From a virus, in the IMG/VR virus record IMGVR_UViG_3300024239_000016, positions 49,678 to 113,677 of that record: a stretch of 64,000 bases of DNA. One strand, 5' to 3'. The notes beneath the pieces are model-generated. The model was not told the origin of the DNA. It saw nothing but the letters and a program-made list of their open reading frames with translations, and made no database searches. The translations under genes and the position numbers were made by a program. Positions 6,832 to 34,301 of the stretch are shown piece after piece; the first letter of the stretch is position 1; each line of letters opens with the position of its first letter.

Positions 6832-7401
6832 ATGAAAGCACAACAAGATTTAATCCGTATCCGTCCGCAAGATCCAGAAAAGCAATATCTAGAGATAGAC
6901 GAAATGCGCTCTCTGATCAGCACCAGTATAATCTCCAAAGACGAAAATTCGTCAGATAGCGACAATATCGCCGATTATCCTCGTGTATTTATCGACGAGT
7001 TGTTTTTCATGATCGGTAGCAGTGTGGTTTGTATGGACGCCGAGATAGAGCTGCCATTGCTATCTGAGCCAACTAATCCACCCGGATTAATGATACCCGT
7101 GGCGCACGAGCCATTGGTTGTCTGTAATCTTACAACAGACGAAGGGTATTCATTTAAAGTGACGTTACAATTCCATTTGTACGTAAATATACCGAAGTGG
7201 TTTGGTGGTAAACAGAAACACAATGATTGTGATAATTTCTTTGGTATTTCCAGCTCTCCGGTTTGGATTCATCGAGTAGAAGTGATTGGTCCTGTTTTGG
7301 AAACAGCGGCGATTGATCTCAGCTGTCAAATTCTTGGCTATAATCTAGCAGTATTGCGAACACCCAAGAAATCCAATACTGCGCTCATCGCCGACGAGTA
7401 G
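6832..7401 (+). CDS. hypothetical protein
   Basis: GAGGAG RBS; 189 aa ORF. Confidence 0.7.
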   Translation: MKAQQDLIRIRPQDPEKQYLEIDEMRSLISTSIISKDENSSDSDNIADYPRVFIDELFFMIGSSVVCMDAEIELPLLSEPTNPPGLMIPVAHEPLVVCNLTTDEGYSFKVTLQFHLYVNIPKWFGGKQKHNDCDNFFGISSSPVWIHRVEVIGPVLETAAIDLSCQILGYNLAVLRTPKKSNTALIADE

Positions 7402-7974: not shown

Positions 7975-8004
7975 ATACCGATCCGGCTTAAGCCGGATCG
8001 GTAT
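7975..8004 (+). terminator. perfect stem-loop
   Basis: ATACCGATCCGGC-TTAA-GCCGGATCGGTAT. Confidence 0.6.
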
Positions 8005-8060
8005 TAGATGATAGCAGCAGGGGATTTTTTCTTTTTATAAATTGCGCAAAGGAAAGCAAA

Positions 8061-9563
8061 ATGCTTCAACAGAATTTACAGGTCCTGGCAAGTGCTCTTG
8101 GTCTTGATATTCATTATCTTCGTGAAAACGGCGGCGATCTCTCACAGCTGAGTGATGGTGACAAGACAAGCCTAGTAGCAGCACTGAACTCATTAAAAGA
8201 ATACGCAAATTCTTACTTGGATGGCGTCATTCATGACGCATCTCAGTCGTCAGATCACGCGTACTCATCCAACAAGATTGAAGCCACTATTCAGTCAGCG
8301 ATTGACCTGATCAAGGTAGGCGCTCCCGAGGCATACGACACGCTGAAGGAAATCGCTGACTACATCGCTCAAGATCAGACACAGATGTCAGGTATTTTGA
8401 CATCGATGGAAAAGCTTGTGCGCTACGATCAGACCATGTCTTTGACTGAGCCGGAAAAGGCAAACCTTCACAACACTCTTGCCCTGGCCATCAGTCAGAT
8501 TGGCATCGAGAGCATCTACGCCGGCTTCCAGCCCAAGCAATTCAAAGATGTGGAATTCTACGTTCCTCACTCTCTAGGCGGACGTATCTTCCAGATCATT
8601 GGCGATGATGTCTCGCAGGTAGCTATCGCCAACACATCGACACGTGCCCCGTATCCACCGAATCAGTTCATCAGCACTGAGTTCAGTAGCGATGGCGAGT
8701 TCTTCCTCTCGCATGAAGGTTACCTGTCCGGTTATCCGAAGGTTCGTGTTGTGGCCCACAAGCGCAATGCCAATGGCACATTTGCAGAAACTGGCTATTA
8801 CGATAACGTCCTTGCTCAATCCATGCTGGCAAGTAAGCAGTATCCAAAGGTCGTCTACAAGCAGACTGCAAATCAAACTCAAAACTGGGCTCAGATCCTC
8901 GGCGTTAATGCGATTGATCGCAGCGATCCAGTTCAGCCTGTTGCAGCCGCCATCCATGGCAAAATGGCAGAAACTCGCGATGGTAGTAAACTAGCTGTCG
9001 CTATGGCTAATGGCAGTCTGCATATCCTCAGTGTTACGGATGGCAATCCGATGTCTTTTGCTCAGGCTGGTTCTGTGCCGGCTTCGCAATTCACAAATGC
9101 GATTTGCAATAACAGTATGGCATTTAGCCCGGATGGCAAGATCCTAGCAGGCGCTTCGCGATACAATGCAACGAAGCAACTGGCTATTGTGGCTACTAGC
9201 GGTGGCGATTTTACTCAGCGCGTTTTACATGCGTTTGATACCGAGCAGGCGCTCCAGCCACGACTCTTCTGGGTTGACTCCAACACCATCGTTGTACAAC
9301 AGAATACCAACTTGCAATTCTACCGTATTCTGTTCGATGGAGTGAATGTCAGCGTGAGTCTCGTCAAGACGCTACCAGTGCCAGTCGGTATGATCATCGA
9401 CGGCGTGACCGATGACGGCCGGCATATCTTCATGCGTACTTTGGCAGGAGGAATGCGAATTCTTCGCCATGTCAGTGATTACCAGTACGATGTTCTTGCC
9501 AATATCACCACTGGTCCGACCACACTGGAATTGTCGCACACAAACTCTCGCCTTCTCGATTAA
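8061..9563 (+). CDS. putative fibre/receptor-binding protein with C-terminal beta-propeller
   Basis: phage fibre N-terminal motifs KTSLVAALN and GAPEAYDTLKEIADYI; WD40-like repeats FSSDGEF and FSPDGKILA. Confidence 0.65.
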   Translation: MLQQNLQVLASALGLDIHYLRENGGDLSQLSDGDKTSLVAALNSLKEYANSYLDGVIHDASQSSDHAYSSNKIEATIQSAIDLIKVGAPEAYDTLKEIADYIAQDQTQMSGILTSMEKLVRYDQTMSLTEPEKANLHNTLALAISQIGIESIYAGFQPKQFKDVEFYVPHSLGGRIFQIIGDDVSQVAIANTSTRAPYPPNQFISTEFSSDGEFFLSHEGYLSGYPKVRVVAHKRNANGTFAETGYYDNVLAQSMLASKQYPKVVYKQTANQTQNWAQILGVNAIDRSDPVQPVAAAIHGKMAETRDGSKLAVAMANGSLHILSVTDGNPMSFAQAGSVPASQFTNAICNNSMAFSPDGKILAGASRYNATKQLAIVATSGGDFTQRVLHAFDTEQALQPRLFWVDSNTIVVQQNTNLQFYRILFDGVNVSVSLVKTLPVPVGMIIDGVTDDGRHIFMRTLAGGMRILRHVSDYQYDVLANITTGPTTLELSHTNSRLLD

Positions 9564-9574
9564 GTCGATATTCT

Positions 9575-9617
9575 ATACATCACTACCGGGCAATGCCCGG
9601 TAGTGATGTATTTTTTT
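9575..9617 (+). terminator. rho-independent terminator
   Basis: 17 bp perfect stem, AAT loop, T-tract. Confidence 0.75.
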
Positions 9618-9624
9618 ATAAAAA

Positions 9625-9632
9625 CATATTAC
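9625..9632 (+). promoter_or_regulatory. phiKZ-type early promoter motif (YATATTAC)
   Basis: CATATTAC after an AT-rich tract; the same motif recurs in several intergenic regions. Confidence 0.55.
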
Positions 9633-9675
9633 TTTACTGATTTCCTACCATTGTTAATTTGGGAGAAGCAAATAC

Positions 9676-10056
9676 ATGAACAACCGACGCATTCGTCTCA
9701 AATCAATTCGCGCGAAGCTTTATAAAGAGAACTGTATTATTCCGACCATAATCAGGAATGGTAAAGTCCTACGCAGAGCTCAACTGCGTTACGCCTACAT
9801 CGAAAGCCGCCCACGTAAAAACAATAAATCAAAACACAAATACGATACCTTTGCACATATCACATGCCCAAGTTGCGATGGCTTTGCTAGTCAGTACCGC
9901 TATGCCGAAACCGAAGAAGAACAAGCATATGAAGAAAAACAAATGTTGAAGCGCGGAGGCATTTTTCCGTATGCTGACATGTACGCATGTCGTGCAAAAA
10001 TCGGCAATGGTGTATGTAGTAGCGGTTATAGCAACAAGCGCTATCGGTTTTCTTAG
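9676..10056 (+). CDS. basic hypothetical protein with Cys motifs
   Basis: GGGAG RBS; CPSC and C-terminal Cys residues. Confidence 0.65.
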   Translation: MNNRRIRLKSIRAKLYKENCIIPTIIRNGKVLRRAQLRYAYIESRPRKNNKSKHKYDTFAHITCPSCDGFASQYRYAETEEEQAYEEKQMLKRGGIFPYADMYACRAKIGNGVCSSGYSNKRYRFS

Positions 10057-10102
10057 TGATTTAATTCGCAGCACATTTATGTGATGTAAAGTAACAAACA
10101 AA

Positions 10103-10821
10103 GGGCACCTGCTAATAAACTATCGGTAGTCAACGTGGCTGGCTATTAGAAATAATACCACGCTGCGATGGCGTAACGATAGAGTCGAAAGAAGCATAAA
10201 ACATCTATTCATTTTGGCACGCGTAAAACCTTAAAAAGATAGATGGGTGAATCTGTTCAAAGTCGGCGAATGCTGCGTCCGTTAGGACACGCTAACGCCG
10301 AGCCAAAACAAGTTGTCCTATTCAGCCTAACCTACCTTTAGTCGGATGTACTTGACCGGTAGTATGGCGGGGATGTAAATGCTAGTTCAGGTAAAACACT
10401 ACGGTGTAACTAGAATCTCGGGAGAGATCTAAAGACAGGCATTCTTGTGAGGTGTAGAGAGATGATGGACAGGACCTAAGTCTGCTGGCGATGATGTTTG
10501 TCGTTAAAACGAAGTTAACTCGATAGTGATATGGATAAATTGCCTATCATGATGACCGTGTTAGCGTAAGGAAGCAGATATGGTAAAGGCGATCTCCGGA
10601 CTACAACAATAGATGGACATGACGCGTGCGTTGCGAGACAGCACAAATCACATACATCTCTGATCGTCGTAAGACGATGTAGTGAGTTTCCTTAAACTAA
10701 AAGTGCATCCCAGTGCTGGCCTTATTAGCATTGCGTAGCCTGACAGCGTAACAGGTTAATTCTAGTTAAAGAAGAAAGTGCTCATGGATTAATACTAGGT
10801 AATCGCATCCATGACAGATGT
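10103..10821 (+). ncRNA. large ncRNA containing a group I intron catalytic core (copy 1; core about 10202-10686)
   Basis: P3 TCTGTTC(10252-58)/GGACAGG(10467-73); P4 TCGGCG/CGCCGA; P6 GCC/GGT; P7 G-A-GAGAT(10459-63)/ATCTC-C(10592-97); P9 ACTACA/TGTAGT; candidate omega-G at 10686. Confidence 0.75.
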
Positions 10822-10906
10822 GCCCAGGTGGCGAAATTGGTAGACGCACCAGATTTAGGTTCTGGCGCCTTCGGGTGTAGGGGTTCGATTCCCCTCTTGG
10901 GCACCA
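10822..10906 (+). tRNA. tRNA-Leu(TAG)
   Basis: cloverleaf; CCAGA-TTTAGGT-TCTGG anticodon arm, variable arm, GTTCGA, CCA end. Confidence 0.95.
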
Positions 10907-10908
10907 AA

Positions 10909-10996
10909 GGAGATATGGCTGAGTGACTTAAGGTACTCCCCTGCTAAGGGAGCGTACAGAAATGTATCGTTGGCTCGAATCCAACTATCTCCGCCA
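10909..10996 (+). tRNA. tRNA-Ser(GCT)
   Basis: GGAGATA/TATCTCC acceptor, CTGCTAA loop, long variable arm, GCCA end; atypical T loop CTCGAAT. Confidence 0.9.
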
Positions 10997-11019
10997 AGAA
11001 TTCAATAGTTGTTTTCATT

Positions 11020-11544
11020 GTGAGGGATCGAATGAAAAATCGTGTCAGTAAATACTTGACTAAGAAGTGCGCTCTGGAACTGCGTATCGTAATTGAGAAT
11101 TTCAATTACGATAAAATCACCGATGTTCAGCACATGACCGGTGTGACCGGTAGGCTTTGGCAAGCAGTTGGCTCGGAATTTGATGCACTCCAGTTAATTT
11201 TAATTGATTTTGAGCTGCTCCCAGATAACAAAACCGAAGCTACCTGCTATATTTTCGTGAGTATCGGCTACAATCCATCTGATGCTCTGCCCGCGTTACA
11301 TCAGCTCCAGTTGTTTATTGACAAATACTCAGCGCGACTTGCCGATACAGACGTAACTCCCGCTAAGCTTCGTATGGATGGGGTATCAAAAGCATTTCGC
11401 TTACAAGCATCAAAGCGCGCCGAATTTTTAGGTGATAAACTTGACGCCTCTATTTTCTTCAATCCTTTGCGTAAGAAAGTGTTGCGTGTCATTGCGGATG
11501 TGCACGAAAACTGCACAGGAACTCTGTGCATTGAGCTAAAGTAA
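11020..11544 (+). CDS. hypothetical protein
   Basis: 174 aa ORF between tRNAs; start may be ATG 11032. Confidence 0.65.
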   Translation: MRDRMKNRVSKYLTKKCALELRIVIENFNYDKITDVQHMTGVTGRLWQAVGSEFDALQLILIDFELLPDNKTEATCYIFVSIGYNPSDALPALHQLQLFIDKYSARLADTDVTPAKLRMDGVSKAFRLQASKRAEFLGDKLDASIFFNPLRKKVLRVIADVHENCTGTLCIELK

Positions 11545-11549
11545 AGACC

Positions 11550-11623
11550 GCCCCCGTAGCATGAAGGTCGTGCAGTTGATTTGTAATCATCAGGTGACAG
11601 TTCGATTCTGTCCGGGAGCACCA
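11550..11623 (+). tRNA. tRNA-Thr(TGT)
   Basis: TTTGTAA anticodon loop, GTTCGATT T loop, ACCA end; mismatches in acceptor and anticodon stems. Confidence 0.85.
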
Positions 11624-11651
11624 ATTTAAAATTTCAATCAGGAGAATTACC

Positions 11652-11840
11652 ATGTGGCCAGATCCAGCATGGTACTTCGATGATTTAAGTATTTTCAAAT
11701 ACTGGGTAGATCAATTCTATTCGATGGCTTGCAAACTCCGCTCCATCTTTAGCTGGCAGGCTGAAGAGGACCCATCCGTTACTGCCATGACGGAAGACGG
11801 TAGCAAGCTCGATTGGAAATTACCGCCCCTTCGGGGGTAA
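11652..11840 (+). CDS. small Trp/Asp-rich hypothetical protein
   Basis: AGGAG RBS; 62 aa. Confidence 0.55.
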   Translation: MWPDPAWYFDDLSIFKYWVDQFYSMACKLRSIFSWQAEEDPSVTAMTEDGSKLDWKLPPLRG

Positions 11841-11859
11841 TCATCAGAGTACCACACAA

Positions 11860-12110
11860 ACCGGAACCAGTTCCTGTACCGGTAGCTTTAAGCTCAATAG
11901 CCTCGTAGGAGGGTGAGGGATAGTTAATGGGCGCTATATCGACTTTGTCGTGATACCCATGAAATCGGTTAGCAGAGCCGATGGGCGACTTCTGTTAGTA
12001 TCAAGCGTTGAGGCTATGTTCAGGATTGTATTTGGGCATTCGACCATCTGTTTTAGATGTCTGGTTCGACTCCAGTAATGATACGATCTAGGGATCCCTT
12101 GGGTCCCTAT
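11860..12110 (+). ncRNA. putative structured ncRNA with tRNA-like T-arm
   Basis: ORF-free; ATAGCCTC/GAGGCTAT enclosing stem; CTGG-TTCGACT-CCAG T-arm; terminal hairpin. Confidence 0.4.
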
Positions 12111-12157
12111 TCTAAAGTGATTTATTTTACAATTATTTTAGAATAGTAAACTTTAAT

Positions 12158-12242
12158 CCGCGGGTGGCGAAATTGGTAGACGCATGAGACTTAAAATCTC
12201 ACACCGAAAGGTATATGGGTTCGACTCCCATACCGCGGACCA
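12158..12242 (+). tRNA. tRNA-Leu(TAA)
   Basis: TGAGA-CTTAAAA-TCTCA anticodon arm, GTTCGAC, ACCA end. Confidence 0.92.
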
Positions 12243-12273
12243 TATCTTCTTAATCAACGAAAGAAAGAAAATT

Positions 12274-12621
12274 ATGTCACGTAAAGAACATAAAGGTCAA
12301 AAATTCGATCTTGCTTACGGCGTAGATCGCTATAGTGGGGCTTTCGTTCAGCTCTTCCAATCTCCGATGGACGATCAAGATGGCGCTTTCCTCAACGTGG
12401 ATTCCCACGGAGTGCGTCTCGATGAAGATCATCCCGAACTGCCCACTGAGCTCACCAAAGTGATCTCGGGGCTGAAATTGGCTTTCTGCCGTTATAAGGA
12501 AGCTCACAACGATAATCCGAATCTCTCGGTCGATCATGTGCTGCATGTTGCCCGCGCAGCTGATCAATTCGATACCTTCTCGGAAAAAGAAGTGTATCAG
12601 GTCTTTGGCGATAACGCTTGA
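12274..12621 (+). CDS. hypothetical protein
   Basis: ATG at 12274; the longer ORF call overlaps the tRNA. Confidence 0.65.
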   Translation: MSRKEHKGQKFDLAYGVDRYSGAFVQLFQSPMDDQDGAFLNVDSHGVRLDEDHPELPTELTKVISGLKLAFCRYKEAHNDNPNLSVDHVLHVARAADQFDTFSEKEVYQVFGDNA

Positions 12622-12632
12622 AAAAAAAAAAG

Positions 12633-13200
12633 CATGTGCTCGCTATTGTCTGAATAGTAAAGAAAGCACGGACTTACTGAGTCCGATAGTGAGGCAGTCC
12701 TGCATTGTCGTCAGATCAAGGCCTATTCATGATAGGTACAGTTTGACATCAGACTCTGGCAGTTAGGCTGATCAGAAGTGGAGCCGTGATAGTTCCGGAT
12801 TTCGCAAAACCCTCAGATTACTTCTGTGGTCAGATGCGAGAGATGATGGAGTACCAGTGTCGAAGAGTGTGCGAGGGTGAACCTAGCGCTCTTAAACGGT
12901 CGACTAAATCAGAACTGATATTTGGCTATCGGCGATGAGGATTGGTTTAGAATCATGCCAATGTTCGAAATCCAAGTTCAAGGAGTTTATTGGGTAGTGA
13001 TGAGAGAACTATCCTAGATACGTTTTCTCATCACTAGAACAGACGACATCCAGGCGAAACTGGGTTAAGTGAACTAGACCCACCAATCCATAGCACATAG
13101 GTGAATACGCACTCCCTTAGGTCTAGAGTGTCAGTAGTTCGCGCGGACTACCTCGACAGCATCGCCCTTGCAAAGCGGTGCTGTCCTGGAAGTGCGCATG
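12633..13200 (+). ncRNA. large multistem ncRNA of about 570 nt (ROOL/GOLLD-like candidate)
   Basis: closing stem CATGTGC/GCGCATG, long-range TGTCGTC/GACGACA, many internal hairpins; ends 7 nt before tRNA-Pro. Confidence 0.6.
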
Positions 13201-13207
13201 AAATTGT

Positions 13208-13284
13208 CCGTTCGTAGCGCAGCCTGGTAGCGCATCTGTTTTGGGAACAGAGGGTCGCAAGTTCGAATTTTGCCGGGCGGACCA
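13208..13284 (+). tRNA. tRNA-Pro(TGG)
   Basis: TCTGT-TTTGGGA-ACAGA anticodon arm, GTTCGAAT, ACCA end. Confidence 0.93.
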
Positions 13285-13308
13285 TTCTTATTTTACCAAG
13301 AGGTAATC

Positions 13309-13551
13309 ATGCAATCAAACCATAAAAAAGATGGCGTTGAAGCAATAAAAGAGCTGATCAAAGAAGTATGGAATACGCTCAAACGGCTTATCGAAGACTG
13401 TTTCATTAAACTGATGCAAAAGCACATCAGGTGCTCTAGCAAAAAGAATTGGGTAGCGCGCAGCTCAAGTATTTTTTCTTTGGGCGACCGCAAATTACTT
13501 GGCATCAGGCGACATACCCCTGATCGTTGGCTAGGTTATATTCGGAATTAG
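13309..13551 (+). CDS. small basic hypothetical protein
   Basis: GAGGT RBS before ATG 13309. Confidence 0.55.
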   Translation: MQSNHKKDGVEAIKELIKEVWNTLKRLIEDCFIKLMQKHIRCSSKKNWVARSSSIFSLGDRKLLGIRRHTPDRWLGYIRN

Positions 13552-13572
13552 TAACATTGGGAGCGGTGTAAC

Positions 13573-13998
13573 ATGAATCTTCATTTCACATCCCCTAGCG
13601 TTGGGAGCGATGTATGGATTGTCAAGGAGGATAAAATCCTTGGCACTGGCGCTGTAGTGGGATTTGATGGACAAGATCGACTGAGTGTGATGTTAAAAGA
13701 CGCTGCAGCGAACGATCTACTTCCTCTGACTACCGATGACTTAAAAAGCATTGGTTATGGTTATTTATTTATCGGCTATGATGCGAATACGTGCGATTTA
13801 CATCGTAATCAGGCAATAGTCGATCTTATCAAAGATGACAGCCCTCTAATTGGCACTTCCATTGTTGATAAATTTAAACTCCGCTATGGTCTTGTTAACG
13901 ACCGTTTCAAAAATGTCCCTGGTTATCGCGAAGCGTGCATCATGGAAGTCGGCCAGTCATTGACTGAACTACCCCAGAGGTCCTGTGATGGTGCGTAG
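13573..13998 (+). CDS. hypothetical protein
   Basis: GGGAG RBS; 141 aa. Confidence 0.65.
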   Translation: MNLHFTSPSVGSDVWIVKEDKILGTGAVVGFDGQDRLSVMLKDAAANDLLPLTTDDLKSIGYGYLFIGYDANTCDLHRNQAIVDLIKDDSPLIGTSIVDKFKLRYGLVNDRFKNVPGYREACIMEVGQSLTELPQRSCDGA

Positions 13999-14542
13999 AA
14001 TATTTCAGAGCAGGGATTTACCGTGGCGTCAGCGTGTTACAATTGTTGTTGTCAACGATAACGGGAATGTCCTCATCGCTAATCAGCCCCCGTTACCGCC
14101 TTATAACGAAAAAATGCTGACCCTACCTGGAGGCGGCATTGAGCCAGGACAGACTCCAGAAGAGGCAGTAGCAGCTGAGCTTCTTGAAGAGGTTGGCGTC
14201 AAAGTAAGCGGCATTCAGGTACTTGACTGTCATACATTCGAAGAGCCGTTTACCGTGCTAAAGCCAGGAGAAGGTACCCCAGTTCAAATCGAGCGTCGCA
14301 AGTTGTTTAAAGGCGTACAATCTGTTGCTTATTTTGCCAAGTTCGAACGCACCATCAATGGTGGTAAAGGCACTGGCAATGATGCAATGGAATGGGAATG
14401 GTATCCGTTCCATAGGGCTACTGGAATAATGCTCGCTCAGCGTGCCCTGGCAATTAAAACTGGAAGAAATGGAAAGCTCCATATGTTCATGGCAGACGCG
14501 ATCAGGGTCGCTAAAGACCATTTTTATAAAATAGAAAGCTAA
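13988..14542 (+). CDS. Nudix hydrolase
   Basis: Nudix box LPGGGIEPGQTPEEAVAAELLEEVGV. Confidence 0.85.
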   Translation: MVRRIFQSRDLPWRQRVTIVVVNDNGNVLIANQPPLPPYNEKMLTLPGGGIEPGQTPEEAVAAELLEEVGVKVSGIQVLDCHTFEEPFTVLKPGEGTPVQIERRKLFKGVQSVAYFAKFERTINGGKGTGNDAMEWEWYPFHRATGIMLAQRALAIKTGRNGKLHMFMADAIRVAKDHFYKIES

Positions 14543-14559
14543 ACTGCTCGCTAGTATGA

Positions 14560-15560
14560 GCGGGTGAAGCTTCAATTAGGGCATTACCGAAAAATACGCT
14601 GGTAGTAGTGAAGAGATTCTTGTATCGATGACAGATAGCTGTCGGTATTTCCGTGTCATGGCGGATAGATCAGCGAGTACTTTACACGGAACAGCGTAAC
14701 CGAAAGGCGGTAAAACAACACCATGAAAGCGGACATCCGCGCGCACATGTGTAGTACCGGTCATACAGACCGGAACGAGCTACTCTGACGCGATGGAAAA
14801 AATGGGCTGCCATAGTGGAGAACTCTTAGTAGTGTTTAGGATAGCTGTGAGACAATGAAGCTCAGTCGCCAGGTTGAGTGGAGTCATCCTTGAAATAGCA
14901 GCCATAAACGGAGTTCAGTTGAATGCAGTGTGATGAATCGTACGCCGCGTGGCCAGGCGATGAAATCACATTCCTCGGAAAGTCGGCGAATGTTTGATGT
15001 GTAAGGCCGTTGGGTCTCCGTGAGAGCGGAGACTGGAACAAGGTGAAACGGCGTTGAGTCGTCAGTGCTAAACTAACGAACAACGAGGCTGGGTCGAAAG
15101 ATGCCGCTTACTGGATGTTCGAATCGTCCCACAATACTAACGCCGAGCCAAGTCTGTGTGATCCGTAATGGGAAAATCGCCTCTGTAAAAAAGTCCAGTG
15201 TGCGAGGATGCTGTTGCGAACTATCAGAAAGGTGTAGAGAGTAGACCCGAGGGACCTAAAACAATTTGTCGATAATAGCTATTGGATCACTTCATCGCGC
15301 GCCGCGGGGTGTTGGTCTAGTAACAGGTAGCTTAGATGGGTTGTCATGGTAGAGGCGTATTCCAGACCACAAACAAAATCAGGGCTCCTAAAGAAAGAGT
15401 AACGCCTGTTTCTGGTAGTGAAAACTATAGTGGTAGGCTTCCTAAGCCTGTATCTCCTGTTCTAGACATAGGGGATGGTTTCTTCAATAGAAGCAGTACC
15501 ACGAGATAATATCGGTATTCTTAGATACTATCGTAAAACTCGTGCACAAAGAGTTCAGTA
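14560..15560 (+). ncRNA. large ncRNA containing a group I intron catalytic core (copy 2; core about 14928-15436)
   Basis: P3 TCCTCGG(14972-78)/CCGAGGG(15247-53); P4 TCGGCG/CGCCGA; P7 G-A-GAGTA(15239-43)/TATTC-C(15358-63); P9 ACCAC/GTGGT with GGTAG-TGAAAA-CTAT hairpin; candidate omega-G at 15436. Confidence 0.75.
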
Positions 15561-15648
15561 GGGGGTTTGGCAGAGCGGTCGATTGCACTGGTCTTGAAAA
15601 CCAGCGATGGGAAACCATCCGTGAGTTCGAATCTCACAGCCCCCGCCA
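15561..15648 (+). tRNA. tRNA-Ser(TGA)
   Basis: CTGGT-CTTGAAA-ACCAG anticodon arm, long variable arm, GCCA end. Confidence 0.95.
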
Positions 15649-15658
15649 ACAAAGGAGA

Positions 15659-16119
15659 TCTGATTGCGAAGTCTTGGTCGTAAAGTTTTAATTCTTACGG
15701 CCTCGTGTCTTTTGGCAGCTACGTTTCCTCTTATCGTTTTTGGATTAAGCAACAAAGCTCAATCTGTCGTATGCTTACCGTCCCAGTTAGTAGGACTGGA
15801 TAACAGTAGTTCAGTACGGAAAGCAGATAGCTGGTTAAGTGATGTTGATGAACAATCGGCACGCCTTGCCGATCCGCAGCGCCCTATCAGCGCATATAAC
15901 CCAAATCGCCTAAGAGCTAATGCAAGACATGGTAAGGGACCATGAGTCTGCACCCAAACTACACCAGGTCACGTGTAAACACTCACAAACAAATACCACT
16001 CGTGTGGTAGAGCGTTAGAAGCTAAAGCTATGGTAGCCGAAGATGATTGTGGATCGTACATCGAACATAATTCCTGATCAGAGTTACGATCGATAAGATG
16101 CGACCATTGAAGACTCAGA
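15659..16119 (+). ncRNA. putative structured ncRNA of about 460 nt
   Basis: nested long-range stems AGTCTT/AAGACT, GGTCGTA/TGCGACC and TCTTATCG/CGATAAGA, plus internal hairpins. Confidence 0.55.
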
Positions 16120-16298
16120 GCCAACCAACGATTACGCTATAAAGAAGCAAAGGATTTATCCGAGCGCACTGTGTCGCATTAAAGGTGGATCCGACAGTTT
16201 CAATTGCAGACTGAGAAAGCTCTCAGTCTGCAATCCAGTTTGTATCTTACCGTGTACCAACTGGATTGCACGACTGTGTAAAAGTTAGATAGAGATAA

Positions 16299-16508
16299 AT
16301 GCCAAAATTTACTTTACATCAGTATAAATTAGTCAATTGCTCTTTAGCTAAAGCTCTTGGCGACAACAGCGCTAAAACCGTAATTGACCTTGCAAGAGGT
16401 CGAGTGTGCCCAATTTGCCATAATTATAAAAATGGCGGATGCGCGGCTTCTCGTAAATTGTTGGAGTTAAGAATGAACAAAAAAATTAACGACGAGATCC
16501 CACTGTAG
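16299..16508 (+). CDS. small protein with CPIC motif
   Basis: 69 aa ORF; purine-rich upstream sequence. Confidence 0.5.
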   Translation: MPKFTLHQYKLVNCSLAKALGDNSAKTVIDLARGRVCPICHNYKNGGCAASRKLLELRMNKKINDEIPL

Positions 16509-16564
16509 CGTTCAGCGAGAATGCCAAAAGATAGTCTTTTGGACGCTGAGCGCGGGAGAGAATC

Positions 16565-16819
16565 TTGTCCAGATCACTGCGTGTGTATAAAACCAAAGTT
16601 AAGAAATTGGCTAGGTTAAAAAGGATTACTGCCAAGAGTTACGCTGCCATCGGTTTTGTAAAGGTAAACGTTCTGTTACAGACTCCTAAAATCTGTAGTT
16701 GTCATATGTGCGGCAATGCAAGAAAGCACTATAGGCGCCGCACGCTTAAAGAAGAGCGCGACCTTGTTGATTACAAGGAGCAGCTTAAGAGCCTTTCGTT
16801 GATCCCTTCCTACAGGTAG
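16565..16819 (+). CDS. small basic Zn-finger-like protein (CSCHMCGN)
   Basis: GGGAG RBS, TTG start; CSCxxCGN motif seen in small phage proteins. Confidence 0.6.
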   Translation: MSRSLRVYKTKVKKLARLKRITAKSYAAIGFVKVNVLLQTPKICSCHMCGNARKHYRRRTLKEERDLVDYKEQLKSLSLIPSYR

Positions 16820-16824
16820 ACTAA

Positions 16825-17170
16825 CTTGGGTGATTGTAGGAGTAGCCCAAAAATAAGCCGTAACAAGCTGGGAAGAAAACCCAGTACCATTTTAGCGAAT
16901 GGTGAGGAGTGTTACGGAGCCATGATGAGTTATTTTAACCAACGACCAATCAGGATTCTCGAATCTAAATGCGACATATGGCCTTAGTGACATCATAGCG
17001 GCTGACCACTCGGCAATATATGGCTGGCCGGCCCGGTCCCTGGCGCGATCCGCGAGTGCTCGCGGATATCCGCCGCTGCCGACTTGTTGCAAATAGATGG
17101 ATCCAGATGTAACTCAATATTGGTGTACCGCAGCACGCCCCTAGGGGCGTGCTGTAGTTAATTTATTTTT
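16825..17170 (+). ncRNA. putative structured ncRNA ending in a terminator
   Basis: CCGTAACA/TGTTACGG multiway junction, GC-rich hairpins, terminator stem 17130-17155. Confidence 0.45.
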
Positions 17171-17234
17171 TATTTATTTTAGAAAATTCTTTTATTAATT
17201 TTTAATAAAAGAATCTTTTATAAGGAACAAAATC

Positions 17235-18080
17235 ATGGGAAAAGAAGCTAATGTGACTAAGCCACTAGCTGTTATAATTAAAGGTAACCCAAAGTACCTT
17301 GATAAGAAAGAAATCAAACCAATCGCCGATGAATTTTACAAGACAGTAAAAAATCTTCTTGAAGAACAAGGCTTCCATGTAACCTTTGACAGTGGCGAGG
17401 ATTTCACCAAACCGGATATTGCTGCCAAGGTATGGGTAGCGCATTCGCGTGGAATTGGAAGATTACAATATGCACCGGATCATATCAAAACCGTAGCTTT
17501 AGATACCAAAAATGGAAAAGATGGCACTGACCCAAAGCATTATCAGCTTTCTTCTAAGGATATAAAAAACCTCAATAGTTTAAAAGAAGAACCCTCGTCC
17601 GGTACGGTGCCATTGACATTAAATCTTCTCGACGAATACATCAAGTTCAGGCAACAATCGCATAAAGAGAGCGATTATGTGAACGCTCTCTCGAAAAATG
17701 ATGCTGTGAAACAAATCAGTGAGCAAAACAAGGACAACAAAACAGCTCTAGTTGCTCTGAAGGACGGAGAAATTGTCGGTCAGCTATTTGTTACTGCGCC
17801 GACTAAAAAACGCAATATAGCGATCATCAATCTGATCTCGGTTCTAGAATCTGAGCAAGGAACCGGATTAGCGCATCGTTTGATGAAGAAAGCTATCTGG
17901 ATCGCGGAAGACGCTGATTGCGACAAACTTCAGCTGATTGTCAATAATAAAAATGAAAAGGCAATCAAGTTTTACAAAAAACACAATTTCAAGCCAATTA
18001 ACAATTACTCAACTCGCGCCACTACTTATGAACTCGATCTTCCTTATGATCGAGACTTAGGCGATCACGAATACAGATAA
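17235..18080 (+). CDS. fusion of an alpha/beta-hydrolase-like N-terminal domain and a GNAT acetyltransferase
   Basis: VWVAHSRG elbow; acetyl-CoA motif EQGTGLA and N..AIKFYKKHNF. Confidence 0.7.
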   Translation: MGKEANVTKPLAVIIKGNPKYLDKKEIKPIADEFYKTVKNLLEEQGFHVTFDSGEDFTKPDIAAKVWVAHSRGIGRLQYAPDHIKTVALDTKNGKDGTDPKHYQLSSKDIKNLNSLKEEPSSGTVPLTLNLLDEYIKFRQQSHKESDYVNALSKNDAVKQISEQNKDNKTALVALKDGEIVGQLFVTAPTKKRNIAIINLISVLESEQGTGLAHRLMKKAIWIAEDADCDKLQLIVNNKNEKAIKFYKKHNFKPINNYSTRATTYELDLPYDRDLGDHEYR

Positions 18081-18083
18081 GCT

Positions 18084-18398
18084 ATGAAAAACGCACAGAA
18101 AATACACACGACAACAGCTGAAGAAATAAAAGCAGCTGTAATAGCGGCAGGGGTAAGTTCAACCAAATTAAGGGAATGTAGCATCTGTGGAACGAAGTTA
18201 TTTTATTCGTTTGATCAAGAAGTAATTAGAAACTCCGATGAGAAGGGAGTCTTCTTCACATCAGAATGTGAGTGCACTTCTTTCGGAGTTGCTCCGCAGC
18301 CAAGAACGTGGGAAGATATCGCGTTTTTGATTAATTTACAAATCACCACCGAGAACTACAATAAGGCTCGCCAACTCTTTTTCTTAGATCCAATCTAA
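18084..18398 (+). CDS. hypothetical Cys-rich protein
   Basis: CSICG...CEC. Confidence 0.6.
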   Translation: MKNAQKIHTTTAEEIKAAVIAAGVSSTKLRECSICGTKLFYSFDQEVIRNSDEKGVFFTSECECTSFGVAPQPRTWEDIAFLINLQITTENYNKARQLFFLDPI

Positions 18399-18476
18399 AC
18401 TCACCATCATGAAAATCAAATTCTATCAAAACTACGACTCGGATTAAATATTTTAATTAATCCGGGGAGTATCCAG

Positions 18477-18851
18477 ATGTCCAGAACCGTTCGTAGGAAG
18501 AACTTGGCTTATTTGTACAATCGTTATGTCGAAAACATCGATTGCATTTATGTTATCGGTAACGTTATTTACATTAAGCGCGACTGGCGGTTTGAGCTGT
18601 GTGAGGTCATGAAGCTCAATCGCATCAACATGTCCGATCCGGATGCCTACGTCGCGTGCGAGCGCGCTCGCTTTCATTCGGACGCCAGGCGTATCAGCAG
18701 TCGCGAAAAGCCCAATAAATTTGGTCGCAAATACCTGCAACGCAGTTATCGTAACTATGTCAAAAATGCTATTCGCAATGCCGTTAAAACTGATCTGGAG
18801 AACTATCCTGTCATTCCGCGACGCTACATCTGCGCTGGCTACTTTGACTGA
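18477..18851 (+). CDS. small basic protein (MSRTVRRK type)
   Basis: GGGGAG RBS; Arg-rich. Confidence 0.65.
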   Translation: MSRTVRRKNLAYLYNRYVENIDCIYVIGNVIYIKRDWRFELCEVMKLNRINMSDPDAYVACERARFHSDARRISSREKPNKFGRKYLQRSYRNYVKNAIRNAVKTDLENYPVIPRRYICAGYFD

Positions 18852-18886
18852 CAGTAAAGGAAATGTGTTTAAGATTTTTTTGAACA

Positions 18887-18894
18887 TATATTTC
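18887..18894 (+). promoter_or_regulatory. early promoter-like motif TATATTTC
   Basis: one mismatch to TATATTAC, preceded by a T-tract like the other copies. Confidence 0.4.
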
Positions 18895-18899
18895 TATTA

Positions 18900-19595
18900 T
18901 GAGTTCGGCCAAGTTTCATAGTCTGAATTCATTCCCGGTACTAACTTACCGTGAGATCGTAACGATCGGGTTGGAGTCGTATAATCGAGCACCTGTACCG
19001 CGCCGGGGAATCCTCTCGAGGATATACTCGCCGCATCGACATAATCGGCGCCTTGTAGTATTGGCCCCGACAGTCTGAGAAACACATCCGCGTAACTTCG
19101 GGTGGAGTTTACTTTACGTGGTTTTTTACTCGATGAATGCTTGTAGAATTGATGCGTTGTAAAGGACAAATCTTTTTAAACGATTACAAGCTCGACGGAG
19201 TCGGTTGCCCTACACTGACTCCGAGACAATAGATGCAGTAGGGATGGCTAGTTTCGCTAGGTCTGATTAAGGCGAGCGAAAGGTGGAGTGCAGATTTTTA
19301 GCAGATAGGTGTCGCGACCGACCCGTTAAATTTTTGCGCGTAGAAGCCCATAGTCAGCACCGCCGCCATCCGGGTGATGGCAAAAGTTAGATTGCAATTT
19401 TATCGAAAACACGCTCGTAGGCTGACATCACGTCGATCTGCTCTGCGTCGGTGTAAACAGCCGTGCAATCAGTTAGTAGCTCGCGATAGCTACCGTCTGG
19501 GTCGTGTGTGGAAACACGATCCTTTCGATAGTTCTTGCGTAAGGGGTACATCCCCTGTTTTACACACCTCCCTTCGGGGAGGTGTGTATTTTTTT
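18900..19595 (+). ncRNA. putative large structured ncRNA of about 700 nt
   Basis: promoter-to-terminator unit with no credible ORF; many stems and a candidate pseudoknot CCCTAC/GTAGGG. Confidence 0.55.
19561..19595 (+). terminator. rho-independent terminator
   Basis: TACACACCTCCC-TTCG-GGGAGGTGTGTA plus T-tract. Confidence 0.8.
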
Positions 19596-19620
19596 ATGCT
19601 GTTTAATTTAAGGAGACAAA

Positions 19621-19887
19621 ATGAGCAGCGACAATGTAGATGACGATTTAAATAGTCGTCGTATGGCTAAACAGTTACTAGCGATGGAATTAGCTAGTCA
19701 TTTTCACCAGCAGGCCATACGACTGCGTGCAAAATCCATGCATGCAAAAGCAATAGCGGATATGCCTGAAGGGGCAATTGATGCGGATGAGCTGTCCGAA
19801 GTTGTCCGTATGGCCGGTAACTATGCTGCGTCCACTATAACTCTCGGTATGGATATCTACATTGATCCAACTGGTGAGTCATTGTGA
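19621..19887 (+). CDS. hypothetical protein
   Basis: AAGGAG RBS. Confidence 0.65.
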   Translation: MSSDNVDDDLNSRRMAKQLLAMELASHFHQQAIRLRAKSMHAKAIADMPEGAIDADELSEVVRMAGNYAASTITLGMDIYIDPTGESL

Positions 19888-20013
19888 AAACGGTTTTCTT
19901 TATCCTGGTATCCGGAGCCGCATGGCTCTGGATATTTTCAAAAATTGAACCTATGTGGTTAGCTGTCTTGCGAGCAGCCTACATAGGTTATTCTTTTATA
20001 TAGGAGTTTAGCT

Positions 20014-20247
20014 GTGCCTTATGGAATCGATCAGCTGCGTGTACCAACCACCAAGTCCGAGCGAGAGGACAAAAAGTACGACATGAACGACGTAATGCGA
20101 GCGGCGCGCCTCCGTATGGAAGGCAATGGCATTTGCATAAACGCCATCAGTCGCCGTCGCCTAAACAAAAATTCGCGATTTACCATGATTGAGTTGAATC
20201 AAATAGTTGACGAAGTTGTCGACGATTCCAACTTCTACAACCAATGA
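20014..20247 (+). CDS. hypothetical protein
   Basis: AGGAG RBS, GTG start. Confidence 0.6.
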   Translation: MPYGIDQLRVPTTKSEREDKKYDMNDVMRAARLRMEGNGICINAISRRRLNKNSRFTMIELNQIVDEVVDDSNFYNQ

Positions 20248-20256
20248 GGAAATGCC

Positions 20257-21048
20257 ATGAAATTCAGCTACGCGCACTTTCCGAAGGGAACAGTGTTTGA
20301 GATCGGTGAGCTCGCTACCAGATTAACGGATAGTCAGACGCAACACGAGGTGGAGAGTTTATATTCGGTTTATCCTGGCACATATGTGATCAATACAACC
20401 AGCTTTATTGAACGGGAATACCCGATCTACAATGACGATAACACACCGTCTGGCGAGACTCGAAAAGAGCGCACTCAGGTATGCCTGAATATCGATCACG
20501 TTACAAAAATAATCAAACGTGGTGCTGGCAGTGTTGTATTTGAGGCAGAACCTGAGCCTCTAGCCAAATGGTCTATTCCCGTCAGTAAGCCCTCGAGAAG
20601 CAGCTATATCGGCTATGAAAACGTTTGTCCTTTCAGTGATGTAATTCTATCATTAGTCGAGAAGCAGTTACATACCAAGCACGATTCCTGGGTTGATATG
20701 AATCGATTGACCTTGTATGTACTCGCTCATGGTGCGATCAGACGGAAGGCTAACGGCATAAATGATCCTTTTACGGGTGACCAAATGGCCATTCGCAAAA
20801 GGAAATTGAAAAGCATAATTCGCCGAAATCTTAATCGATTTTTAATCCCGATAAGAGAAGCTGAAGCCGAATATTTGCGAGAAAGAGATAACGACTATGC
20901 CCGTGATGATCTTTTCTGGTTTCAGCATGATGTAGTCGATGAAGTTGATCAGGACGACTCAGCTGATGATGGACTGTTCGGTCATGCTCTGGATGAAAGA
21001 TTCGCTCTCTCTAGCGATGATCTCCATGAGGATGAACGTAAAATCTAA
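20257..21048 (+). CDS. hypothetical protein with acidic C-terminus
   Basis: GAGGA RBS; 263 aa. Confidence 0.7.
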   Translation: MKFSYAHFPKGTVFEIGELATRLTDSQTQHEVESLYSVYPGTYVINTTSFIEREYPIYNDDNTPSGETRKERTQVCLNIDHVTKIIKRGAGSVVFEAEPEPLAKWSIPVSKPSRSSYIGYENVCPFSDVILSLVEKQLHTKHDSWVDMNRLTLYVLAHGAIRRKANGINDPFTGDQMAIRKRKLKSIIRRNLNRFLIPIREAEAEYLRERDNDYARDDLFWFQHDVVDEVDQDDSADDGLFGHALDERFALSSDDLHEDERKI

Positions 21049-21085
21049 TTAGTTAAGCCAGAGATGCCCGTGTATTGTCTAGTCT

Positions 21086-21118
21086 AAAAATAGCCCCATT
21101 TGGGGCTATTTTTTTTTT
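21086..21118 (+). terminator. rho-independent terminator (possibly bidirectional)
   Basis: AAAAATAGCCCCA-TT-TGGGGCTATTTTT. Confidence 0.75.
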
Positions 21119-21196
21119 ATGTGTCGGCCCCATTGCAAATCTGATGACATGTTTATAAACTTTTTTCTTCCCAATAAATATACAGGAGATTAGCTC

Positions 21197-21550
21197 ATGA
21201 GCGGCGATCTGCTTACCGAAATTCGTGATGTTTTGCAAAACATCGGTATCGATATCCACACGATCTCATCTGCACTAATGCAAGTTCGAGAATTTGGTGA
21301 AGACTTAATGAGCGTTGAACGTAGCGATCGCGATGAGAATGATGTTTTTCGCATTGTGAAACACTTCCGCGATGATGGGACTCTCTATCGCAAATCGACG
21401 CTATCAGGCGGTACATCGCCAGAATACACGTCGTATGTCATTGAGTACTATGATGCAACAGGATTGACTGTTGTACAAACTCGAGCATACACCATGACGT
21501 ACAGCAATGGCGAGATGGTTTCTCGCACCTACGTGCCACCGCAGCCATAA
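21197..21550 (+). CDS. small putative virion protein, paralogue of 48319-48639
   Basis: AGGAG RBS; heads the fibre cassette. Confidence 0.6.
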   Translation: MSGDLLTEIRDVLQNIGIDIHTISSALMQVREFGEDLMSVERSDRDENDVFRIVKHFRDDGTLYRKSTLSGGTSPEYTSYVIEYYDATGLTVVQTRAYTMTYSNGEMVSRTYVPPQP

Positions 21551-21562
21551 AGGAAACACAAA

Positions 21563-22855
21563 ATGCTGCAAGATTTCAGACACGGTACAGCAGTCTCCAA
21601 GAGACATATGTCAGCTCATCTAACCACTTATTTGAAGTTAGATGAAATTGGTCAGACAATACCGCCAGTGGTTGATGGTCTAATTCCAACTGAATTCATT
21701 CCGACACCAGCTGGTACTACTGCGTTTACTATTTTAGATAAACAGAAGCTAGATGGTATCCAGGCCGAAGCTCAAAAGAACGTCGCCACTAATCTGTCAC
21801 TAGGTGGTACGGACGATGTAGTCCATGTACAGAGTAGCACTGGTAATTTTGTTACTCTTCCAATAGTCTCGAATTTGCGCGCTGGTCTCATGACCAGATC
21901 TATGTTTGAGAAACTAGTTGGCATTGAGGAGGGTGCTCAGAAGTGGCGATTGCCGACACTTACCGAACTCAATCTAGATCAGGTGGACAACACACCAGAT
22001 TCGAATAAGCCAGTTAGCGTATCGCAGCAAGCGGCGTTAGATCTCAAAGAACCATCGATCACTGCTGGTACAATTGCCCAGTATTTTTCAGGTACTAAGA
22101 CATGGCGTAACCTTGCCGCAGATGTCCGTAATGTAGTTCTCACTGGACTATCGGCAGGTGTGGCTAGCGCGATTATAGCTACTGATACATTGCTGGAAGC
22201 TTTGGCTAAGTTGCAAAAACAGCTAGATGCAAAAGAGAACGCACTAAGCCCAGGTAACGCCACGCAATATTTCAAAGGGGATAAAACCCTGGGTAGTTTT
22301 GTAGATGATGTAAAAACTGCAGCAATTCAATCTGTCCTGACAGGTATCTCGTTCATTTCCGGAACAGCTGTAGTTGAAACAGATTCCATTCTGGTAGCTA
22401 TTGGAAAGCTACAGAACAGAATCAATCATTTCACGACTGTCACCAATGCCCTAATGGCCGAGCTGATCAACAAAGCGTCACTGGCGCAGGCCAATGATTT
22501 TCAGCAAAAGATGTCAGTAGCCGGTACACTGACCGTTTACGCTGGAGCGTTCACTCCGTCTGTACCTTTGCAGTTCAGTGCGGCTGGGATAAATATTGAC
22601 CCTGCGGCATCAAACTCATTTGAGGTGGGTACGCTCACTGCCAATACATCTCTTGTAATAGACTCAGGCGTCACTGGCCAAACCATCCAAATTCGGTTTC
22701 AGCAGGATGGAATCGGCAATAGGACTGTATCGTTGCCGGCTGACGTAAAAGCATCAGGTACTTTGTTAGCGACAGCAAATAGAGCCAGCTGGTTGTGTGT
22801 TACTAAAGCAGCCAATGGTAATTGGGAAGGAAACTGGTTCCAGGTACCTTCCTGA
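21563..22855 (+). CDS. tail fibre protein
   Basis: fibre motifs LDQVDNTPDSNKPVS and KLDGI; duplicated TDTLLEALAKLQ/TDSILVAIGKLQ repeats. Confidence 0.75.
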   Translation: MLQDFRHGTAVSKRHMSAHLTTYLKLDEIGQTIPPVVDGLIPTEFIPTPAGTTAFTILDKQKLDGIQAEAQKNVATNLSLGGTDDVVHVQSSTGNFVTLPIVSNLRAGLMTRSMFEKLVGIEEGAQKWRLPTLTELNLDQVDNTPDSNKPVSVSQQAALDLKEPSITAGTIAQYFSGTKTWRNLAADVRNVVLTGLSAGVASAIIATDTLLEALAKLQKQLDAKENALSPGNATQYFKGDKTLGSFVDDVKTAAIQSVLTGISFISGTAVVETDSILVAIGKLQNRINHFTTVTNALMAELINKASLAQANDFQQKMSVAGTLTVYAGAFTPSVPLQFSAAGINIDPAASNSFEVGTLTANTSLVIDSGVTGQTIQIRFQQDGIGNRTVSLPADVKASGTLLATANRASWLCVTKAANGNWEGNWFQVPS

Positions 22856-34278: not shown

Positions 34279-34293
34279 ACAATTTTTTAACGA

Positions 34294-34301
34294 TATATTA
34301 C
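34294..34301 (+). promoter_or_regulatory. early promoter motif TATATTAC
   Basis: exact consensus. Confidence 0.6.

Follow-up and report, generated by a model that had tools for sequence, protein, structure and literature searches.

Descriptions of group I ribozymes almost always concern introns that restore a split gene. Outside split genes they are represented by the c-di-GMP-gated ribozyme in a 5' untranslated region (UTR) of Clostridioides difficile and by the lariat-capping ribozyme GIR1. Bacteriophage T4 makes RNAs C and D (species 1 and 2), non-tRNA molecules which are co-transcribed with tRNAs and freed by tRNA processing, and GOLLD and ROOL are large structured phage RNAs free of open reading frames (ORFs), often found by tRNAs. 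Here we analyse an island at positions 9620-19600 of a 64-kb stretch of DNA (the window, to which all positions refer unless stated otherwise), which corresponds to positions 49678-113677 of the IMG/VR record IMGVR_UViG_3300024239_000016, one phage contig of 194,227 bp whose G+C content is 46%. In this island tRNAs are interleaved with the candidate RNA elements E1 to E7 (Table 1), and we consider it probable that it represents a tRNA-punctuated stable-RNA operon of a chimallivirus-like phage. Two of its elements, E1 and E4, are, as judged from their helices and from a covariance model, IC3 (tRNA-type) group I ribozyme cores that have no exons.

E1 and E4 have three exact blocks in common, AAGUCGGCGAAUG, CUAACGCCGAGCCAA and AGGUGUAGAGAG...GGACCUAA, which correspond to P4, P6 and P7 in the core of introns of the Azoarcus and Anabaena type, a lead that was then tested. 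Scanning IMG/VR with two of these blocks yielded 151 loci, and at 54 of 68 core-block loci an ARAGORN search that permits introns reveals a tRNA gene (Leu-UAA, Arg-UCU, Phe, Asn and others) whose anticodon loop is interrupted by 160-780 nt of intron. Alignment of 26 compact phage tRNA introns leaves 97.1% of the cells paired and gives double changes in 31 of 41 pairs, the P3/P7 pseudoknot included, while none of 500 shuffles was as good and slid controls had 32-43% paired. The covariance model R1, built from these 26 introns from P3 through the terminal G and run with filters off over 8000-22000, matches E4 at 15186-15397 (33 bits, E 1.6e-8, with further pieces at 14968-15175 and 15413-15428) and E1 at 10248-10348 (28.1 bits, E 4e-7) and 10411-10621 (20.3 bits, E 7e-5). 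It matches these two elements only, both in this interval and across the whole genome, where E4 scores 35.9 bits.

A scripted check finds P2, P3, P4, P6, P7, P8 and P9 fully paired in both elements, with P3 being CUGUUC/GGACAG in E1 versus UCCUCGG/CCGAGGG in E4, and P7 being GAGAU/AUCUC in E1, GAGUA/UAUUC in E4 and GACUA/UAGUC in the reference family; the guanosine-binding G:C pair of P7 is retained in each (G10459:C10596 and G15239:C15362). The two ribozymes that an earlier reading of this DNA, made from the sequence only, had placed among the RNAs of the island are hereby recognised, both as group I cores of the IC3 type. The terminal G of each element was placed by alignment to the reference introns, and the boundaries of E4 were set by homology to four tRNA introns (loci L015, L019, L027 and L098). 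Rfam's own group I model gives no score on E1 and E4, nor on the true tRNA introns. Several candidates were considered and rejected: CUGCU/GGUAG as P1 of E1 is P2 by alignment, GAACUCU/GGAGUUC as P1 of E4 is the closing helix of the arm described below, and E3, tried as a further group I copy, has a 13-mer in common with E1 but gives no match to R1 with filters off.

Neither E1 nor E4 sits in a tRNA or an ORF. With introns of up to 1200 nt allowed, ARAGORN finds around them only the intact downstream tRNAs. Spliced constructs were made from all plausible combinations of 5' and 3' ends, 2475 for E4 and 2190 for E1, and none of the E4 constructs yields a tRNA at the default setting of ARAGORN or at 95%. 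Lowering the threshold to 80% brings 788 weak calls across the E4 junction and 22 across the E1 junction; an interruption of tRNA-Arg(CCU) by E4, to which such calls pointed, was rejected, since they are gone at 95% and default. The ORFs upstream of the elements stop short, the Nudix hydrolase gene 30 nt before the E4 5' splice site and ORF126 47 nt before E1. Across the E4 3' junction there is a hairpin with a 5-bp stem (15434-38/15446-50) and a 7-nt loop, UUCCUAA, that looks like a leftover of the anticodon arm of tRNA-Arg(CCU), and the segment 15425-15560 has a fold z-score of -3.15.

In E4 the strand GCUU pairs with the guide GGGC at 4 of 4 positions, with U.G at the splice site, and P2 follows immediately. 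As the 5' splice-site helix, the guanosine-site pair and the terminal G are all kept, E4 is probably still self-excising and may cut itself out of the transcript, whilst E1 may at most cleave at its own 3' end or act otherwise.

A second feature of E4 is a replica of the ribosomal L1 stalk (H76-H78 of 23S rRNA) within the extension of its P2. Positions 14833-14904 align to positions 2135-2206 of the model LSU_rRNA_bacteria (RF02541) with 50.4 bits against a cut-off of 50 (E 8e-13), a match which depends on the filter and goes unreported when only 1.1-1.7 kb is searched. The alignment contains zero non-canonical pairs, its helices differ from the consensus and its stems show compensatory changes relative to a real 23S segment, and the highly conserved unpaired stretches are all retained (UAGGAUAG, GAG, UGAA, GGAG and UUGAAAUA). 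No similarity to E. coli genomes was found by blastn. Canonical pairing, covaried stems and the absence of a blastn match together point to a maintained structural copy rather than a recent capture of a host fragment.

The true tRNA-Leu intron of locus L015 holds a shortened module in the same GCUGUGAGAC...AAAUAACAGC frame. A model of the L1 stalk (R2) found only its own training copies (W4 and L015) in 1.47 Mb of fetched loci, and a search with two consensus patterns for mimics of the GAC/uL11 site found none. In the ribosome H76-H78 is the binding site of uL1 and also stacks against the elbow of the tRNA in the E site; RNase P and T-boxes employ the same device of interleaved T-loops. We suggest that the E4 arm may recruit uL1, perhaps as a folding cofactor or a decoy, or may grip a tRNA elbow, and the latter would make sense for exon docking in a true tRNA intron.

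The other elements were judged by fold z-scores against dinucleotide shuffles; for 11 ORF control segments the z-score ranged from -0.3 to -3.6 with a mean of about -1.2. E3 has a minimum free energy of -202.6 kcal/mol against -166.4 +/- 6.9 for its shuffles (z -5.25), and 0 of 100 shuffles fold as well; E6 reaches z -4.33 and E7 z -3.25. E5 taken whole (15649-16298) has z -4.93, which agrees with its earlier listing as a structured RNA, but its first 290 nt are probably a gene and not RNA. The 93-aa ORF found there is preceded at 6 nt by a Shine-Dalgarno sequence AAGGAG, and the product, which belongs to no Pfam or PHROG family, has a signal-like N-terminus with a basic beginning, a 20-residue hydrophobic stretch and a lipobox-like LTASC. 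E2 shows a T-arm-like hairpin (12061-12075) beside its acceptor-like helix and a further hairpin at 12089-12108, and its interval (11860-12110) folds no better than shuffles (z -0.61) and is not confirmed as a structured element. An interrupted tRNA or transfer-messenger RNA (tmRNA) was also tried for E2 and rejected: ARAGORN in both modes, with introns and over 3240 deletion constructs, gave nothing at default thresholds. In place of about seven large structured elements, as supposed from the sequence only, there are four solid ones (E1, E3, E4 and E6) and a moderate one (E7), E5b and E2 being weak.

E2, E3, E5, E6 and E7 have no match to any Rfam family or to the group I model R1. Searched with blastn against 50,697 phage records, E1, E3, E4, E5-E6 and E7 returned only tRNA and rRNA pieces, and exact 20-mers of E3 were found in no viral contig. 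Two metagenome contigs were set aside, as they share nothing beyond a chance match of 21 nt within a protein gene.

The composition of the island separates it from the rest of the genome. A crude map of ORFs of at least 70 aa on both strands covers 93.3% of the 194-kb genome and leaves 15 ORF-free gaps of at least 250 nt (6518 nt); 7 of the 15 gaps and 3880 nt of this sequence (60%) belong to the island. Within 9620-19600 the ORF-free sequence amounts to 4187 nt (42%), with 15664-15945 counted as coding, which bears out the earlier estimate of roughly 4 kb with no credible ORF. Further ORF-free gaps of 330-450 nt exist outside the island, at 34279-34606 and 35142-35587 of the window and at 6852-7297 and 8722-9071 of the genome.

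All six tRNAs, on which ARAGORN and Rfam agree, lie on the plus strand at 10822-15648 and are the only ones of the genome. The tail of E1 ends at 10821 and the next tRNA starts at 10822; E3 ends at 13200, 7 nt before tRNA-Pro at 13208, and the E4 flank ends at 15560 with a tRNA at 15561. Strong plus-strand terminators were found only at the three places given in Table 1, with none as strong between the first two. With no strong terminator from 9611 to 17130, ORF126, E1-E6 and the six tRNAs are most simply one unit of about 7.5 kb.

At the start of this unit, position 9626 holds a one-mismatch copy of TATATTAC, a motif biased in strand genome-wide (13 copies on the plus strand and 0 on the minus strand, with about 4.7 expected per strand), and TATATTTC stands at 18887, directly before E7. 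TATATTAC resembles the core of phiKZ early promoters, and with its variants may serve as a phage promoter. A 24-nt AT-rich repeat is present 3' of the hairpins ending E2 and E6, as AUUUAUUUUACAAUUAUUUUAGAA at 12120-12143 and as a variant, 88% alike, at 17161-17184; it could function as a promoter of the phage or as a signal for processing.

From this layout we propose the following. A single plus-strand transcript of about 7.5 kb would run from just past the terminator at 9575-9611 to that at 17130-17155, carrying, besides the six tRNAs and some small genes, four or more large structured RNAs. E1 and E4 would descend from introns of tRNA anticodon loops and now be parts of intergenic RNA with neither tRNA nor protein exons; the P2 extension of E4 would have acquired the L1-stalk replica, and should bind uL1 or the tRNA elbow, and E3 and E6, with E7 in the next unit, would be folded RNAs of no known class. 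RNase P and the 3' processing enzymes would cut the flanking tRNAs and the ribozymes would cleave themselves, leaving separate stable RNAs. Of the tRNA-punctuated release that had been imagined for a polycistronic transcript, the one-unit layout and the tRNA junctions of 0-10 nt are supported, and the release itself is plausible.

Public sequencing runs contain relatives of the phage, one run coming from a different study (X3), one from wastewater (X6) and one being a metatranscriptome of compost (X7). Among the X3 pieces listed, those on ORFs differ at 21 of 318, 19 of 214 and 8 of 202 positions, and those on RNA elements at 5 of 352 (E1 core), 2 of 494 (E3), and 5 of 217 and 2 of 278 (E7). 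This makes 48/734 (6.5%) for ORFs versus 14/1341 (1.0%) for E1, E3 and E7, an approximately sixfold difference (Fisher p 9e-12); the 5' part of E1 with the P2 loop carries indels in X3. In X6, which is probably a DNA run, the values are 3.0% for ORFs versus 1.3% for RNA elements (p 0.04).

In the RNA library X7 the non-tRNA pieces listed fall on E1 (10255-10480), E3 (12673-13090), E4 (14587-14761 and 14838-14988) and E6 (16832-17000, with 2 differences). The piece at 14838-14988 has 85% identity over 151 nt, and all 16 of its listed differences are transitions; it extends well past the rRNA-like 72 nt, and therefore belongs to a distant relative of E4 and not to rRNA. X7 has no contig on ORFs, E2, E5 or E7, which we take as a sign neither of absence nor of silence. 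The contigs of this library cannot show ends, strand or level. Deep cover of X6 at 14838-14897 was set aside as real rRNA of other organisms, and the read joints 11623/13207, 11628/12163 and 11903/12061 look like foreign tRNA contigs.

The main rival to the operon is decay: E1 and E4 would be remains of intron-bearing tRNA genes or ectopic insertions, and the other gaps would be spacer that happens to fold. We hold this to be unlikely, yet a number of observations speak for it or against a maintained set of RNAs. Besides the lack of tRNA exons, E1 keeps the guide-like GGGC at 10103-10106 with no complementary 5' strand upstream, and P10 complementarity is found in neither element. All 26 reference introns have C:G as the third pair of P7, where E1 has G:C and E4 has G.U, and catalysis of both is therefore possibly impaired. 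The hairpin like an anticodon arm persists at the E4 3' junction, and the intron family is mobile, occurring elsewhere in tRNA-Leu, Arg, Phe, Asn and capsid genes. One of the ORF controls folded as well as z -3.6; homologues of E3, E6 and E7 were found nowhere searched; and the low divergence of the RNA elements could come partly from mosaic recombination between strains. The X7 contigs are a hint of expression only, because they come from a single library that may contain DNA, and the runs show no transcript ends, spliced junctions or processing sites.

What counts against decay is that the core helices are all intact in both paralogues with compensatory differences between them, and that the E1 core and E3 are about sixfold less divergent than the neighbouring ORFs in the X3 relative. 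RNA-library contigs on E1, E4 and E3 add to this, and so does the folding of E3, E6 and E7, far better than that of their shuffles.

Still less likely do we find hidden coding or ordinary cis-regulation, with small genes, long UTRs, attenuators and promoter or terminator regions filling the gaps. The earlier proposal had envisaged its own failure if small translated ORFs should occupy these regions; a small ORF overlooked in that reading, and probably a good gene, is present in the 5' part of E5, and the minus strand of E7 contains a protein-like 54-aa ORF (19387-19551), which has no family and no minus-strand terminator. In favour of regulation it can be said that the terminator of the operon lies inside E6 and that the AT-rich repeats following the hairpins of E2 and E6 look like promoters. 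However, no ORF of at least 70 aa exists in the remaining gaps, the ORFs of E3 and E7 are without Pfam or PHROG families, E1 and E4 are demonstrably ribozyme cores, and a helix-closed element of 568 nt abutting a tRNA would be atypical of a UTR. That E3 (and E6 or E7) are divergent giant RNAs of the GOLLD or ROOL type, with which the sequence-only reading had compared the island, is very improbable: in being 300-700 nt long, in coming from a phage and in lying next to tRNAs these elements resemble the usual context of such RNAs, but neither RF01998 and RF03087 nor any other of 4227 Rfam families matches at E up to 5-10 with lax filters, Rfam at gathering score and at lax E-values gave only the tRNAs and the L1-stalk piece, and the phage records searched with blastn contain no match.

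Table 1. Features of the RNA island, in window coordinates
Feature	Positions	Strand	Basis and remarks
Intrinsic terminator, strong, closes upstream unit	9575-9611	+	17-bp stem and T-run
Promoter-like motif CATATTAC	9626-9633	+	promoter role putative
E1, exon-less IC3 group I ribozyme, 584 nt	10103-10686	+	covariance model R1, helices checked
E1 P2	10109-13/10125-29	+	
E1 P3	10253-58/10467-72	+	
E1 P4	10263-68/10296-301	+	
E1 P6	10308-12/10444-48	+	insert of ~130 nt
E1 P7	10459-63/10592-96	+	
E1 P8	10474-76/10582-84	+	insert of ~105 nt
E1 P9	10663-68/10673-78	+	
E1 terminal G	~10686	+	
E1 tail, spacer of 135 nt up to tRNA-Leu(TAG)	10687-10821	+	fold z -0.04, no structure signal
tRNA-Leu(TAG)	10822-10906	+	ARAGORN, Rfam
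tRNA-Ser(GCT)	10909-10996	+	ARAGORN, Rfam
tRNA-Thr(TGT)	11550-11623	+	ARAGORN, Rfam
E2	11840-12108	+	ends pair acceptor-like, 11840-46/12076-82 (6/7)
tRNA-Leu(TAA)	12158-12242	+	ARAGORN, Rfam
E3, closed structured RNA, 568 nt	12633-13200	+	7-bp terminal helix 12633-39/13194-200 (7/7)
tRNA-Pro(TGG)	13208-13284	+	ARAGORN, Rfam
Nudix hydrolase gene	13985-14542	+	Pfam PF00293, E 4e-17
E4, ornate exon-less IC3 group I ribozyme, 864 nt (14573-15436), with 5' strand of P1	14569-15436	+	covariance model R1, helices checked
E4 P1 (GCUU / guide GGGC)	14569-72/14579-82	+	5' splice site after 14572
E4 P2	14583-88/14601-06	+	followed by insert of ~360 nt
E4 L1-stalk replica (23S H76-H78)	14820-14916	+	inside P2 extension, on 7-bp closing helix 14820-26/14910-16
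E4 P3	14972-78/15247-53	+	
E4 P4	14983-88/15141-46	+	P5 insert of ~150 nt
E4 P6	15153-56/15225-28	+	
E4 P7	15239-43/15358-62	+	
E4 P8	15254-56/15348-50	+	insert of ~90 nt
E4 P9	15415-19/15424-28	+	
E4 terminal G	15436	+	
E4 3' flank	15434-15560	+	anticodon-arm-shaped hairpin, then hairpin-rich spacer of ~124 nt up to tRNA-Ser
tRNA-Ser(TGA)	15561-15648	+	ARAGORN, Rfam
Probable gene in 5' part of E5, 93-aa basic protein	15664-15945	+	TTG start
E5b, ORF-free, 353 nt, weak candidate	15946-16298	+	strong hairpins, e.g. ~16205-16240
E6, structured RNA, ~310 nt	16820-17155	+	ends in terminator of the unit
Intrinsic terminator, closes tRNA/E1-E6 unit	17130-17155	+	within E6
GNAT acetyltransferase gene, opens next unit	17235-18080	+	Pfam PF00583, E 4e-15
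E7, ORF-poor structured RNA, ~700 nt	18888-19588	+	ends at terminator
Intrinsic terminator, end of E7	19561-19588	+	

Some loci outside the island also deserve a description in their own right. At five of them (L035, L067, L070, L106 and L116) the same IC3 family splits a phage major-capsid-like gene, whose 3' exon reads ...LVQGDI(D/N)TFLGF(K/E)FITS...ADKSYSTQVYV, and the occurrence of these introns in both tRNA and capsid genes means that the family is mobile between tRNA and protein targets. A true tRNA-Leu(UAA) intron in L019 (minus strand) seems to hold in its P2 region, some 200-300 nt upstream of the match at 2102-2116, a complete nested tRNA-like gene, GGGAUGGCGGAACGGUAGACGC...GUUCGACUCUUACUCCC, so that one tRNA would lie inside the intron of another. 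A permuted tmRNA (RF04321, 83.5 bits) is located at 12168-12417 of L011, in the tRNA cluster of a 155-kb viral contig, and adjoins an ornate 703-nt tRNA intron with a P4 block identical to that of E1 and E4. L166, L167 and L168 (records G001 and G002) are distant chimallivirus-like contigs, with 28-29% identity in a virion protein; their group I cores are of another flavour, the GUUCAACGACUA type, score 18-27 bits with R1 and are not in tRNA genes but, as it seems, between or within protein ORFs.

The genes between the elements are of the kinds read from the sequence at the outset, namely a Nudix hydrolase, a GNAT acetyltransferase and small basic Cys-rich proteins (ORF126 with pI 9.9, ORF69 with pI 9.6 and ORF84 with pI 10.5). 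Three small basic proteins, encoded at 9676-10056, 16565-16819 and 18477-18851, have in common a pI of 9.9-10.5, Cys motifs and R/K-rich N-termini (MSRSLRVYK..., MSRTVRRKN... and MNNRRIRLK...) and no Pfam family, and are possibly RNA-binding paralogues that flank the RNA elements. The Nudix protein and a 174-aa ORF have zero homologues among 5.8 billion proteins or in IMG/VR.

The phage itself, from a subsurface or soil metagenome and with a completeness of 73% as estimated by CheckV, had been guessed to be nucleus-forming, and this guess proved right. A profile search of the window proteins identifies the gene of the nuclear shell protein at 59913-61808 (phrog_4795, E 3e-64), and further genes code for a tail sheath, a terminase and the beta subunit of a phage multisubunit RNA polymerase; from the shell protein and the polymerase subunit we conclude that it is a chimallivirus-like, nucleus-forming phage. 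Its nearest relatives are phiKZ-like phages of Burkholderia, Ralstonia and Xanthomonas in GenBank and some IMG/VR contigs, with an identity of just 28-36% in the conserved 850-aa virion protein used as a query. Comparative work is limited throughout by this isolation of the lineage.

In the literature searched there is no description of exon-less tRNA-type ribozymes or of L1-stalk replicas in large phages, and in a 2025 review of nucleus-forming phages group I introns appear only in connection with homing endonucleases in protein genes. If our interpretation is true, selected copies that belong to no gene and carry an rRNA module would mean that ribozymes are reused as stand-alone phage RNAs, and the L1-stalk replica outside the ribosome would offer a directly testable handle, through binding of uL1 or tRNA. 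E3, E6 and E7 add strongly folded, conserved and ORF-free RNAs that have no family and are, for now, singletons. As transcription and translation are separated in nucleus-forming phages, a block of stable RNAs by the tRNAs would be a natural place for control of the host ribosome. The island may be an RNA-based system not yet described, as was supposed from the beginning. We may even imagine an RNA toolkit, in which self-excising ribozymes that bind protein or tRNA, a working L1-stalk replica that captures uL1 or tRNA elbows, and new classes of large RNAs (E3, E6 and E7) set free as the tRNAs are processed would jointly manipulate the translation of the host or its handling of tRNAs, although we regard this extension as speculative and rather unlikely.

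The described systems that come closest are the IC3 tRNA introns, exemplified by Azoarcus tRNA-Ile, by Anabaena and plastid tRNA-Leu(UAA) and by the phage introns of IMG/VR. E1 and E4 share with them the P3-P9 core with the P3/P7 pseudoknot, the conserved blocks of J3/4-P4, GAGCCAA, GGUGUAGAGA and CCAGACCACAAAC, the CCUAAG/UAUGG receptor in P8 (E1), a GNRA-capped P9, the terminal G and the setting in a phage tRNA cluster. They differ from these introns in having neither exons nor P10, in the 5' splice-site strand missing from E1 and in one changed P7 pair, as well as in their very large size (584 and 864 nt), their ORF-less structured inserts and, for E4, the rRNA replica. With the C. difficile ribozyme and GIR1 the likeness is by analogy, a group I core in non-coding RNA whose output would be cutting rather than exon repair, whereas E1 and E4 belong to another subgroup, possess no aptamer and create no downstream ORF start.

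To GOLLD and ROOL the RNAs of the island show no match in sequence or structure. Like T4 RNAs C and D, E1, E3 and E4 end 0-10 nt before a tRNA, but the T4 RNAs are of about 120-140 nt versus 300-860 nt here, where two of the RNAs are ribozymes and the processing would follow by inference from the layout. The L1-stalk module has two counterparts, the stalk of 23S rRNA itself, all of whose H76-H78 helices and every conserved unpaired base are kept at 14833-14904 of E4, and the uL1-binding mimic in the L11-operon mRNA, which is likewise an L1-stalk look-alike outside the ribosome; unlike both of them, the E4 module is placed in a peripheral arm of a phage group I ribozyme.

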